From a virus, in the UHGV virus genome UHGV-0371921: a stretch of 12,071 nt of DNA; one strand, 5' to 3'. The translations under genes were made by a program, and so were the position numbers. This document shows, in pieces, positions 6,223-9,110 of the stretch. Within the stretch, counting starts at the first letter, position 1. Each line of letters starts with the position of its first letter. The notes under the pieces were generated by a model. That model saw nothing but the letters and a program-made list of their open reading frames with translations, searched no databases and had not been told where the DNA came from.

Positions 6223-6438
6223 ATGAAGATAGAAATATTTGGTGGAGCTGACAACACTCGTGGCCTGATTTACCTTGAATTCGATGAATCATACCTGCCA
6301 GAGGTGTTAAATATAGACTCTGTTGCTGAGGCTTTGGGAGTAAACCCTAAAGAACTCCACTCTTGTGCTGAGATCGATGGTTGGGAAGAGACCATGAACA
6401 TTGATTTCAGTGAAGTAGAGGATGAACCGCTGGACTGA
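6223..6438 (+). CDS. hypothetical acidic protein (71 aa)
   Basis: ATG 6223 with GAGGAG 5 nt upstream; last gene of the rightward block. Confidence 0.6.
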   Translation: MKIEIFGGADNTRGLIYLEFDESYLPEVLNIDSVAEALGVNPKELHSCAEIDGWEETMNIDFSEVEDEPLD

Positions 6439-6532
6439 CGCACAATTAGCTGCCCGGCCAAAGTGCTGGAAGCGCACCTATAACACATCTTTCAACTAAA
6501 TTTCCCACCACCACAATCACTTACCTTCCACA

Positions 6533-6565
6533 CATGACTGTTTGCTTGTTTAGTGAGCAGTCATG
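6533..6565 (+). other. inverted repeat CATGACTG-N17-CAGTCATG immediately upstream of a promoter
   Basis: 8 bp arms at 6533-6540 and 6558-6565. Confidence 0.4.
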
Positions 6566-6567
6566 CC

Positions 6568-6595
6568 TTGACATTCTTGCCTATCCTGATAAAAT
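6568..6595 (+). promoter_or_regulatory. sigma70-like promoter TTGACA-N16-TAAAAT reading into the ORF-free zone
   Basis: TTGACA 6568-6573, 16 nt spacer, TAAAAT 6590-6595; no ORF with a ribosome binding site follows. Confidence 0.45.
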
Positions 6596-7119
6596 TAAGT
6601 TCTTCTCTTTTCTTTTACCGAGTAATTCGGGTTTTCTGTTCTCTTCGGTTTGAAGGGGTATGGAGATACACCTGAGTGAACAGGGTGAACAACCGAACCA
6701 TTGGCTATGGCATTAGCATGGCGAAGCGGACGGGTGACGAAAGAGGGGCCGGAGGACACCAGTCACTGCCATATGATATATGGGTGATAACCTGAAGAGT
6801 CTGAATAAGTGTTTAAGTACCAGTCAGAGGAAAAGGTGAATGGTAGCCGAAGGGGAGGGGGGTTTCTTGTATCTTTAATTTGTATATTATGTATACACTT
6901 GTAAACCAATCTCATCTGAATCTGTTTACCACACAAAGCGAATAGAGACAAATATTACCTATTAAACTTGAATTATTTATAGAAAATACCGCAACACCAC
7001 TTAAGTCTTTGATTTTACACACAAATCCTACAGATATTCAGCCTCCCTATTTAACATACCTGTAACATATTCCATACTCTACCTGCCTGATCAATTTACC
7101 CAACTACATCCCCATATTT

Positions 7120-7350
7120 TCCCTGTCTGTACTACCCCTGCCCCGCCGGGAGTCCCGTCATATCTGGCTTTCCAGCAAATATCACACCCACAAATATCAT
7201 TGCCTGAAGAGGGTTTCATCCCATAATACATACCTTGCCTGAAGATCGCTTCATACACCACGTAAATTTTTTAATTGACCTGCAATTTCTCCTCAGATAT
7301 CCCCCTGTCCCGCCGGAGAGGTTGTCTTTTCCCACACAGACCTGAAGAGT
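7120..7350. repeat. degenerate ~175 bp duplication carrying CCCTG(C/T)CCCGCCGG and CCTGAAGAG motifs
   Basis: CCCTGCCCCGCCGGGAG at 7134-7150 versus CCCTGTCCCGCCGGAG at 7302-7317; CCTGAAGAG at 7203-7211 and 7341-7349 (also CCTGAAGAT at 7238-7246). Confidence 0.5.
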
Positions 7351-7544
7351 CAGTCAGAAATATCTGAATGGGCCCAGTTCTGCCCTGTCATGAGCGGTAG
7401 CGACTGGAGTGCTGCCAGGCGGACGGAATGGGAATACTTCTCATTCTTATAATAATTCTCAAATATCGAGGCAGTGAGGCAAATTAATAGGTGAGGCCGT
7501 TCACACAGTGGCACAACATTTGCAATCTATTTTGTGAGGGTGAA

Positions 7545-7579
7545 TGAGAATACCTATCATTGTGAGAATCTTTATCATT
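7545..7579. repeat. imperfect tandem repeat TGAGAAT(ACC/CTT)TATCATT x2
   Basis: Copies at 7545-7561 and 7563-7579, 14 of 17 positions identical. Confidence 0.5.
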
Positions 7580-7933
7580 ACGGGCAATTTAACATAATAC
7601 CCATTATGCGCACCACTGGCGATACATACAGGGATTGATAACATAGGTTACTGTTTACGCACATAACAATTATATTTCTTATTATTTGTGGGGGGATATA
7701 GTTAGCAGCCAATAGATTAGATATTGACCTGCAGACTTCTGACCGTCCAGACGTCTAAACGCCCACACAACAAGGATTATACATACAACACTGAATGTAA
7801 ACAGGGCCGCAAAAATGCTACCATACAAGCTTGTAAATTTTTCATGCAGCACTTGACAAAGAGGAGAAAAACTTGTCTGACATAATATGACACTTTAAGC
7901 ACATTAAACACACTGAACATAATTGACATGCAT

Positions 7934-8038
7934 GACTGTTTACGCTGTCACTATTCACGCTATTACTATTCGCTCGCTTACTGTTCATGACCTTTACTGT
8001 TTACATTCCCAATAGTTTACATAGCTTACTGTTAACGT
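7934..8038. repeat. iteron-like cluster of ACTGTTTAC / TTACTGTT direct repeats
   Basis: Exact ACTGTTTAC at 7935-7943 and 7996-8004 (also 7650-7658 and 8472-8480 outside the cluster); variants TTACTGTTCA 7978-7987, TAGTTTACA 8013-8021, TTACTGTTAAC 8026-8036; all in one orientation. Confidence 0.6.
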
Positions 8039-8064
8039 ATAGATTATTTACTCAAAAATGATAA

Positions 8065-8084
8065 GCCATGCCATTCGTTTGCAT
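8065..8084. repeat. 20 bp direct repeat GCCATGCCATTCGTTTGCAT, left copy
   Basis: Identical 20-mer recurs at 8296-8315. Confidence 0.8.
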
Positions 8085-8130
8085 GACAATAATTATACAT
8101 GACAATAATCGCACTGATTATAATTAGCAT

Positions 8131-8282
8131 GACATAATATAAAAGCAGGGCAACTATTAGCAGATCTATAGTTGCCTTGCTTGTTATGTCATGATTAACT
8201 GAATACAAGGCAACTATGATCTGATTAATAGATTGCAGACAAACTATCACGGGGGTGATGGTTACTGCTTTTATATTATGTC
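8131..8282. repeat. 16 bp inverted repeat pair GACATAATATAAAAGC (8131-8146) / GCTTTTATATTATGTC (8267-8282) enclosing the palindrome
   Basis: Exact reverse complements. Confidence 0.75.
8149..8176. repeat. 28 bp palindrome GGCAACTAT-N10-ATAGTTGCC (candidate protein-binding site)
   Basis: 9 bp arms are exact reverse complements; further GGCAACTAT copies at 8209-8217 (direct) and 8314-8322 (inverted); 12-mer CAAGGCAACTAT is shared by the arm at 8168-8179 and the copy at 8206-8217. Confidence 0.75.
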
Positions 8283-8295
8283 GCGACTCCGTCGC

Positions 8296-8315
8296 GCCAT
8301 GCCATTCGTTTGCAT
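8296..8315. repeat. 20 bp direct repeat GCCATGCCATTCGTTTGCAT, right copy
   Basis: Identical to 8065-8084; preceded by small hairpin CGCGAC-TCC-GTCGCG (8282-8296). Confidence 0.8.
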
Positions 8316-8929
8316 AGTTGCCTTATTGTTACAGATAGAATAATTGTATTGTTAATTATTTCTTATCTTTCTATTAGTCATCTAATGATTCCAGTTAGTA
8401 TAGTAACGTACAGTAAACATTAGACGACTAAAGATTTCTCTGCTTATGGTAACCTAACGTGACAATTCCAGACTGTTTACGAAAAATGTTGACACTTGGG
8501 CCGATTTATGTTATGCAGTTTACACGAATAATTATTTTATGCAGGTATTGACTATTCCGTTATTCTATGGTTGGAATAAATGCTTAGCAGGCTATAGAAT
8601 GGCGAGCGTACGTAAATTCTGAGATCTGGCGGCTATAGTTATACTCGATTTTTCACGTAGAAAACGCTTTTGTAGTTATGTAAGTGTATGACTTATAAGA
8701 ATTTTTAGTTGTTGACAAGCTATTGAAGATATGCATCAGGTTAAATTTTGTGCAAATGCTGCATTACGTGCAATTTTGGAAGGAAAAACGTGTAAAAATG
8801 GCCCTGCTACCACACAATGAAAAATTATGCAATAGTTATTTTATATGTATGTTTGTACAGTGGGGTTAATTGCTGGCTTGTTGATTATTCCATTTGCCAG
8901 GCGGGGCCATTTGTGGTAGGAAAAGAGGA

Positions 8930-8958
8930 GACAAAAGAAAGGGGCTTTAAGCCCCTGA
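8930..8958 (-). terminator. intrinsic terminator of the leftward gene block (minus RNA: AGGGGCU-UAA-AGCCCCU then UUUCUUUUGUC)
   Basis: 7 bp stem plus U tract on the minus strand, just downstream of the last minus-strand stop codons (8976 / 8987). Confidence 0.7.
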
Positions 8959-8975
8959 CCGTGCACCTTGTTGTA

Positions 8976-9110
8976 TTATTTGTTGCTCATCCAGTTTTCC
9001 CAAGCTGCCTGATAATCTGCCTCACTACGGCGGATCTCTTCTTGCTCTTCAAGGCGGATCTCTTCTTCCAGGTACCCCAAGATGTCAGCCTTTTTGGTCT
9101 GGCGTAACAT
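8976..9110 (-). CDS. alternative -1 frame ORF (44 aa, MLRQTKKADILGYLEEEIRLEEQEEIRRSEADYQAAWENWMSNK), possibly the true C-terminal part of the 9238 gene
   Basis: Protein-like acidic sequence with EEEIR repeat; no strong SD of its own; fully overlapped by the track ORF in another frame. Confidence 0.3.
   Translation of the reverse strand: MLRQTKKADILGYLEEEIRLEEQEEIRRSEADYQAAWENWMSNK

Follow-up and report, generated by a model that had tools for sequence, protein, structure and literature searches.

What is produced by a promoter that fires into DNA in which no gene can be found? The question arises at positions 6568-6880 of UHGV-0371921, a viral DNA of 12,071 nucleotides (nt) that is called the window throughout. 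A first-pass annotation of its letters had noted a TTGACA-N16-TAAAAT promoter here, followed by a purine-rich segment free of open reading frames (ORFs), and had proposed a candidate non-coding RNA (ncRNA). Our comparison with related genomes leads us to read the segment as a non-coding transcription unit yielding a stable early RNA that acts in trans, and to assign this reading a probability of roughly one half. Its core, a block of 261 nt at 6602-6862, is most likely, judging from sequence comparison, an undescribed RNA gene of the rV5-like phages that belongs to no described family.

The segment is the left edge of an ORF-free gap of ~2.5 kb in these phages. Searches with blastn, using 6400-7000 and the whole gap, returned ~120 phage records, all of them Vequintavirus (rV5-like Escherichia coli myophages), the group to which the window belongs. 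Every carefully annotated relative shows the same order: a homologue of the 71-amino-acid (aa) ORF at 6223-6438 as the last + strand gene of the early region, ~2.5 kb devoid of genes, and then - strand genes that converge from the right. The locus is a point of transcription convergence and coincides with the maximum of the cumulative GC skew. In the rV5 genome paper it is drawn in grey as a box, marked "non-coding" and left unexplained, that separates gene 163 from gene 164; the authors expected a bidirectional terminator in this box and located none, and the replication origin of rV5 could not be placed (PMC3606486). Two further lineages were retrieved from public assemblies by means of the flanking 71-aa protein. 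One, comprising L018-L023 and the IMG/VR contig L007, has early genes ~80% identical to those of the window and is called the L018 lineage; the other, L015-L017, has early genes ~72% identical and is called the L015 lineage. Counts of variable sites refer to 28 distinct variants from the main and L018 lineages.

Two features carry the argument:

6568-6595, + strand: sigma-70 promoter with an extended -10 element; TTGACA at 6568-6573, a 16-nt spacer and TGaTAAAAT, with the TG at 6587-6588 and TAAAAT at 6590-6595.
6602-6862, + strand: ultra-conserved non-coding block, the proposed RNA body of ~260 nt; predicted transcription start at ~6602 +/- 3 nt.

The promoter named by the first-pass annotation is present in the sequence and agrees with the consensus at 11/12 positions, to which the extended -10 TG is added. 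The window holds four promoters of at least 11/12 (57, 545, 2451 and 6568), as against an expectation of 0.41, and each is on the + strand, the orientation of the early genes. The TG accompanies three of the four, against 0.03 expected. Weak matches (at least 9/12) are not commoner in the region than in shuffled sequences. The three others, each an 11/12 match with a perfect TTGACA, lie ahead of early gene blocks, and two of them are the rV5 promoters P144 and P150. The promoter at 6568 belongs to the class of rV5 early promoters, TTGACA-N17-TGnTAxxxT, and follows the pattern of P036, P051 and P074 (rV5 Table S4); it is missing from the published rV5 list because only DNA upstream of genes was searched there.

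Comparison of the variants establishes that this promoter is conserved, and conserved selectively. Its hexamers and TG are variable at 0/15 sites, whereas the spacer is variable at 8/13 and has taken a 2-nt insertion (Fisher p = 4e-4), and half of the discriminator (3/6 sites, 6596-6601) varies. Across the three lineages the hexamers and TG are invariant, with spacers that range from 16 to 18 nt. On the evidence of these alignments, the hexamers are under a selective constraint of their own, which the spacer does not share.

Downstream of the promoter the composition is unusual in the way that had been described, first pyrimidine-rich and then rich in G and A, and both parts lie at or near the extremes of the 12 kb. 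Positions 6601-6650 are 76% pyrimidine, the highest of all 50-nt windows, and 6650-6860 are 66.4% purine, which puts them in the top five when every 211-nt window is ranked (mean 0.50, sd 0.056). The non-template strand of the block is 35% G, with a skew of +0.3.

Conservation in related genomes, whose absence the first-pass annotation had named as grounds for rejecting its proposal, is likewise present, and the segment outranks the rest of the window in this respect. Among the 200-nt bins of the 12 kb, 6601-6800 ranks first, at 0.989 in an identity profile of seven relatives, and the segment is 97-99.7% identical across ~118 Vequintavirus genomes, in each of which blastn of 6530-6900 against complete phage genomes finds it at one place. 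Within the block, 22 of the 261 sites are variable (8%), as against 32 of 38 (84%) in the adjoining 6863-6900 (p = 1e-22), and the first 60 sites (6602-6661) are variable at none. Six added GenBank genomes contributed zero new variable positions, and the recurrent ones cluster at 6699-6703 and 6775-6776. The block retains 95-98% identity in the L018 lineage, whose flanking genes are ~80% identical, and its 5' 100 nt are 90% identical in the L015 lineage; its substitution rate is several-fold below that of the adjacent genes. Both boundaries are sharp. The left one (~6602, the predicted +1) is defined by L007 and L018; the right one, at the last G of a G tract (6862), is set independently by L012 (Mangalyan), L028 and L015, all of which carry unrelated DNA beyond it. 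At single-base resolution, the pattern of conservation fits a promoter followed by a transcribed non-coding unit.

Length is less constrained than sequence in one part of the block:

6788-6830, + strand: variable-length segment within the block, with lineage-specific indels.

The L018 lineage has gained 1 nt at 6744, 14 nt at 6792 and 13 nt at 6818 and lost 1 nt at 6807, and the L015 lineage lacks ~6762-6830 and has further gaps of 2 nt and 9 nt. The -10 element and the G tract lie 253, 280 or 197 nt apart in the three lineages. These indels bear directly on whether the block could encode a small protein, for example the 39-aa ORF at 6676-6795, which begins with GTG. The first-pass annotation had put the longest in-frame peptides under 40 codons; this holds approximately on the + strand, where the maxima are that ORF and one of 40 aa (6553-6675) that starts upstream of the promoter, and it left out ORFs of 54 and 62 aa on the - strand. 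It had also found no proper Shine-Dalgarno (SD) sequence, which is partly right, except that an SD-like GGAG at 6662-6665 sits 10 nt before GTG 6676. Together with small coding sequences (CDSs) annotated here in NHEP1, Mangalyan and HMD-6, this GGAG is what speaks for coding. Against it, not one ORF on the two strands stays intact throughout the lineages, owing to indels or to a change in G-run length; the +1 insertion at 6744 of the L018 lineage falls inside the 39-aa ORF, and the L015 lineage deletes much of it. Such lineage-specific frameshifts exclude a conserved ORF. Moreover, six of the eight substitutions in the 39-aa ORF are non-synonymous and show no bias to the third codon position, ORFs of the block have zero family matches in Pfam and PHROGs, and none occurs in a collection of 5.8 billion proteins, searched with the translated block to catch mis-called ORFs. 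Carefully made annotations of relatives leave the region empty; some depositors have placed small hypothetical CDSs over the gap or block (NHEP1, Mangalyan, HMD-6, PMBT16). The comparisons establish the block as non-coding, and we consider a protein product scarcely credible.

No known RNA accounts for the block either. The first-pass annotation could not match it by eye to transfer-messenger RNA (tmRNA), RNase P, 6S RNA or a group I intron, and the covariance-model scan it had called for was likewise empty: Rfam 15 (4227 families) gave no match at the gathering threshold anywhere in the window and none at E <= 10 in 6530-6900 or in the gap, nor any at E <= 1 in the divergent loci L015 and L018. 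A scan for tRNA and tmRNA found none. Tandem repeats of the ToxI type (~34-36 nt) form no array in 6400-7800 (Tandem Repeats Finder, TRF, minimum score 30), there are no direct-repeat families inside the block, and blastn of 6530-6900 against complete phage genomes found no second, adenine-variable copy such as the template repeat of a diversity-generating retroelement would have. Likenesses seen by eye to the sarcin-ricin loop, the B12 box, GEMM-I and the type I-F CRISPR repeat (TCACTGCC) had no model match and were set aside.

Its distribution is equally narrow. No blastn match, as a host origin or antisense target would give, was found among 5,426 E. coli genomes, and a degenerate 30-mer of the core is unmatched in the bacterial genomes of GTDB. 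The single plasmid match is a mis-filed Vequintavirus genome, IMG/VR holds 2 contigs, and JGI/ENA metagenomes hold 5, all close relatives. The flanking 71-aa and 139-aa protein families are themselves restricted to the Vequintavirus group, at identities of at least 77-80%. Within these sequence collections, only Vequintavirus and the uncultured lineages closest to it carry the element. Mislabelled records were met on the way: 18 "Campylobacter phage" entries in GenBank are Vequintavirus genomes, as is the E. coli "plasmid" CP057073.1 (137,565 bp).

If the block works as RNA, its fold should leave traces in the alignment. The features concerned are these:

6602-6616, + strand: 5' polypyrimidine (CU) tract CUUCUCUUUUCUUUU, invariant in the main and L018 lineages.
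6618-6646, + strand: small hairpin CCGAG-UAA-UUCGG (6618-6630) followed by a U-rich run; weakly terminator-like or pause-like, and flagged by the terminator scan.
6654-6673, + strand: hairpin with a GGAG loop (6662-6665); -6 kcal/mol, z = -2.3 (fold of 6653-6675).
6763-6787, + strand: hairpin UCAC-UG-CCAUAU-GAU-AUAUGG-GUGA, with recurrent substitutions at 6775 and 6776 within its 3-nt loop.

At the substituted positions the probability of being unpaired averages 0.58, as against 0.36 overall (permutation p ~ 0.01). In the GGAG hairpin every substitution lies in the loop (G6662A in L026 and L017, G6665U in L015 and L017), and the stem at 6763-6787 contains the sole compensatory pair found, a CG-to-GC change in L015/L017. 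The CU tract at 6602-6615 can also pair with the G tract at 6849-6862 over 14 bp (-14.5 kcal/mol), and these two tracts are the exact ends of the conserved block. We retain this closing helix as a model only and reject it as statistical evidence, since pairing of this sort is to be expected between any CU tract and a G tract.

The hairpin at 6618-6630 invites a smaller product, namely an Hfq-type small RNA (sRNA) of only the first ~40 nt, in which a CU-rich seed resembling an anti-SD sequence would be followed by this hairpin and its U run as terminator, all the rest being read-through. The 5' 60 nt being the only part free of variable sites, and the flagging of the hairpin and U run as terminator-like, agree with such an sRNA, as does the behaviour of the L015 lineage, which keeps the hairpin by sliding its stem one base (C6617-G6631 gained, G6622.U6626 lost) and reaches -8.5 kcal/mol (z = -2.8). 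In the window, however, the hairpin has little stability (-4.5 kcal/mol, z = -0.9), and its U run is not continuous (GUUUUCUGUU). The following 220 nt are nearly as conserved and stop at a sharp boundary, so that read-through is an insufficient explanation of them. An sRNA of this kind is, in our estimation, very unlikely.

A more stable hairpin lies outside the unit:

6533-6565, + strand: inverted repeat or RNA hairpin directly 5' of the -35 element; 8-bp Watson-Crick arms, extending to 14 bp as RNA with G.U pairs.

The 8-bp inverted repeat had been noticed in the first pass, and its arms are indeed found, CATGACTG at 6533-6540 and CAGTCATG at 6558-6565. Folded as RNA, it reaches -18 kcal/mol (z = -6.4), a stability equalled by 0/200 shuffles. 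Changes in the L015 lineage are limited to two apical pairs and the loop, four of the pairs are G.U, and the A6534G change of L007/L018 still leaves a G.U pair. The G.U pairs and this wobble imply a hairpin that works only as + strand RNA, and it probably forms part of the upstream operon's 3' end, as opposed to serving as a DNA operator.

Several observations weigh against a trans-acting RNA. The global minimum-free-energy fold of 6600-6880 has z = -0.65 relative to shuffled sequences. The check for compensatory changes in homologues proposed in the first pass yielded the one pair described above among 73 predicted pairs, together with a covariation term of +2.97 from RNAalifold, which is a net penalty; with 20 substituted positions in the 28 variants, there is too little variation for this test. 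One substitution, G6782A in L035, breaks a stem pair of the 6763-6787 hairpin. The folding models and alignments thus provide modest evidence of RNA structure, and the candidate ncRNA of the first-pass annotation is the best-supported reading through the comparative evidence on promoter and block. Furthermore, ~240 of the 261 block positions are invariant, which is beyond the needs of most structured RNAs and could reflect constraint on the DNA or homogenisation by recombination. The terminator scan found no intrinsic terminator, with GC-rich hairpin and U tract, at 6840-6900; TT is all that is conserved past the G tract. A U run is absent in L012, L028 and L015, and two of the three downstream versions lack it. 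The unit also sits among iterons and repeats, in a region that resembles one of replication or packaging control. Finally, we found no RNA-seq, northern, transcription-start or promoter study of any Vequintavirus in the literature searched.

The repeats of the gap are of several kinds. An iteron-like array of ACTRTTYAC occupies 7935-8036 with a spacing of ~15 bp (7935, 7950, 7964, 7978, 7996, 8012 and 8028), and TRF reports a period of 15 at 7942-7971. Further copies stand outside the array at 6537, 6921, 7650, 7797, 8413 and 8472. With at most one mismatch, the motif occurs 15 times in the window as against 3.15 expected, and 9 of the 15 copies are inside the ORF-free gap. The copy at 6537, ACTGTTTGC, lies in the 5' arm of the hairpin upstream of the promoter, and the inverted form GTAAAC appears just past the G tract. 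A second ultra-conserved island, at 8060-8600, reaches 0.99 identity at 8200-8300 even in the L015 lineage, where genes are at ~0.72. It contains a 20-nt direct repeat GCCATGCCATTCGTTTGCAT (8065 and 8296), a perfect 18-nt inverted repeat (8131-8148 and 8265-8282) and four copies of CAAGGCAACTAT in both orientations, and on its sequence is a candidate replication origin or packaging site. Elsewhere in or near the gap, the motif CCTGAAGAG has four exact copies and one with a single mismatch (6141, 6791, 7203, 7238 and 7341), ACCTGAAGAGTC is identical at 6790 and 7340, and a small hairpin TGAAG-N4-YTTCA is present in two copies (7200-7219 and 7235-7254). Indels concentrate at 7280-7300 and 7395-7400; in some relatives an extra 48-70 nt that could form hairpins is inserted (for example in L007 at 7294, and in L002 and L010 at 7396).

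The block might instead act as DNA, either by binding proteins of replication, packaging (pac) or recombination or as a stretch homogenised by frequent recombination, with a promoter that only opens or regulates the site. Its near-total invariance, with variation at a few recurrent hot spots even when the six added genomes are included, is what such an element would show. Iteron-like motifs flank it on both sides (ACTGTTTGC at 6537 upstream, the inverted GTAAAC downstream), and the surrounding gap also outconserves genes in the divergent lineages. Several genome assemblies were opened within the gap, but their ends are scattered rather than at a single site. Other features fit a DNA platform poorly. 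Conservation begins at the predicted transcription start and excludes the spacer and discriminator, while the hexamers are selected in their own right. Lineages differ in internal length by over 80 nt, a spread that a fixed protein-DNA architecture would not readily accommodate. The strand-specific G.U pairing upstream and the restriction of changes to loops favour RNA. A purely DNA-level role is, on balance, quite unlikely.

The 3' boundary of the block raises a different possibility. It involves three features:

6849-6862, + strand: G tract GAAGGGGAGGGGGG, at which conservation ends on the 3' side; found in all three lineages.
6863-6990, + strand: AT-rich, fast-evolving DNA directly 3' of the G tract; 74% AT in the window.
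6900-7350, + strand: C-rich, G-poor tract (C 29%, G 12%) with the composition of a Rho utilization (rut) site.

The G tract (GAAGGGGGAGGGGGGTT) is unique in the window and persists in every lineage, including those in which the DNA on both sides of it has diverged. Its form is G4AG6 in the window and G5AG6-7 in other genomes; GCAGCAGC is an altered version of the G5AG6 tract, designed as a mutant. Beyond it, the lineages have three unrelated sequence versions, each 62-74% AT. Human mitochondrial DNA has a tract of the same kind in conserved sequence block II (CSBII), with the alleles G5AG7, G6AG7 and G6AG8, which form RNA, DNA and hybrid G-quadruplexes (PMC8780183). CSBII halts transcription from the light-strand promoter (LSP) and anchors an R-loop that primes replication (PMC6317783).

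By analogy, the unit could give a cis-acting origin transcript, with an R-loop anchored at the G5AG6 tract by an RNA or RNA-DNA hybrid G-quadruplex; the RNA would stop or be processed at the tract and would prime or activate synthesis into the AT-rich DNA. The G tract as the exact 3' limit of conservation in all lineages, one G away from the CSBII allele G5AG7 (PMC8780183; PMC6317783), is consistent with this, as are the G-richness of the non-template strand, the AT-richness of all three downstream versions, the iteron-like array and second ultra-conserved repeat island in the gap, and the lack of a known origin in rV5. The layout is less favourable. Transcription converges on the locus, at a cumulative GC-skew maximum, whereas origins usually have a divergent layout; the iterons lie more than 1 kb downstream, past the rut-like tract; and the G clusters stand at the transcript's 3' end, as opposed to the promoter-near position of typical R-loop-forming sequences. 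Nor would an R-loop require 240 invariant bases, and, to our knowledge, termination of E. coli RNA polymerase at a G-quadruplex is not established. We regard an origin transcript as unlikely. Its most specific form makes the unit the phage counterpart of LSP-CSBII, in which a halted transcript, held by an RNA/DNA G-quadruplex R-loop at G5AG6, primes or licenses the first round of rV5-type replication and so marks the missing origin; resting as it does on analogy, this version is decidedly improbable.

The C-rich tract suggests how a longer transcript might end. All three lineages keep a GC skew of -0.3 to -0.6 here, including L015, whose sequence cannot be aligned over this stretch; what is conserved at 6900-7350 is the composition, not the sequence. 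From this we infer that the tract may be a Rho terminator for + strand transcription from this promoter and from the upstream operon. Read from the - strand, the same tract would give a G-rich RNA. A 208-aa - strand ORF that covers it in L022 and L023 has a translation that looks spurious, an artefact of the G-rich strand, and was discounted.

In the trans-acting RNA reading that we prefer, host sigma-70 RNA polymerase would initiate at the extended -10 promoter, which is of the class of the phage's other early promoters, and would start at ~6602 an untranslated RNA with a functional body of ~260 nt (6602-6862). This body would comprise the 5' CU tract, several small hairpins, a GA-rich core and the G5AG6-type G tract at its 3' end. 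The RNA itself would be the product, stable, early and active in trans; its most plausible mode of action would be to bind a protein or nucleic acid, whether of the host or of the phage. No classical hairpin-plus-U terminator would form its 3' end; the polymerase would instead enter the C-rich, G-poor tract, Rho would terminate within 6900-7350, and exonucleases would trim the transcript to the G tract, itself paired with the 5' CU tract or folded as a G-quadruplex. Transcription of the element, constraint at the RNA level, this mode of 3'-end formation and action in trans are all what we infer from the comparisons.

The neighbourhood provides some further context. The 139-aa gene, found at the right edge of the gap in most relatives, is absent from the window (8958-8976) and from FV3 and pangalan, and in the L036 lineage it adjoins a different, unrelated ORF-free region of 1.6 kb that is rich in repeats. 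A synteny route through a Dsb-like regulator into Mydovirus and Seunavirus was abandoned, the gene there being in another context without the gap. The early ORF at 621-938 is annotated in relatives as a ribosome-associated translation inhibitor of the RaiA/HPF type, a hint that the early region may manipulate host translation.

The rV5-like phages (Vequintavirus; Bas48-62 of the BASEL collection) are widely isolated and are used in O157 biocontrol, in therapy cocktails and as model phages. Their "non-coding" box, unexplained since 2013, now has an anatomy at its left end: a promoter, a 261-nt body, a CSBII-like G tract and a rut-like tract. The body is the slowest-evolving DNA of the neighbourhood, and what had been a blank region becomes a testable target of gene size. 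If it gives a trans-acting RNA, this would be a new family of phage ncRNA, possibly concerned with host takeover or counter-defence; if it acts in cis, the element may mark a replication origin. In either case we advise annotators to make no small-ORF calls over 6602-6862.

Among known systems, the mitochondrial LSP-CSBII primer transcript shares with the phage unit a promoter-driven, G-rich, untranslated RNA of 100-550 nt whose end lies at a GnAGm tract, with T's and AT-rich DNA beyond; the phage G5AG6-7 is close to the CSBII allele G5AG7. The R-loop origins of ColE1 RNA II and T4 oriF/oriG are looser likenesses. The phage locus differs in that an R-loop or origin there is hypothetical, that a multi-subunit bacterial polymerase takes the place of the single-subunit mitochondrial one, that transcription converges upon it, and that homology is limited to the G tract.

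Like described phage ncRNAs (the pseudo-ToxI of PhiTE, phi29 pRNA, T4 RNAs C and D, lambda OOP), the proposed RNA would have a promoter to itself in ORF-free DNA of a lytic phage, and PhiTE, which belongs to the same subfamily (Vequintavirinae), provides a functional ncRNA encoded in non-coding DNA (PMC3475682). The block differs from ToxI and pseudo-ToxI in having no tandem 36-nt repeats and from described phage RNAs in having no Rfam match; compared with antisense RNAs, it is larger than is typical and has no gene opposite. It resembles 6S RNA and CsrB/CsrC in its size class (180-370 nt), its design around a promoter of abundant RNAs, its purine-rich body with six GGA and SD-like motifs, and its possible 5'-3' closing helix. 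Unlike these, it is unmatched by 6S or CsrB models and has no repeated hairpin module. A CsrB-type sponge for CsrA presents ~9-22 GGA in hairpin loops, whereas only one of the six in these 261 nt, GGA 6662, is in a predicted loop, and this one is mutated in L017 and L026. With transcripts that are terminated by Rho and then trimmed, finally, the unit has in common the lack of an intrinsic terminator and, past the conserved body, a tract of ~400 nt with more C than G in all lineages.

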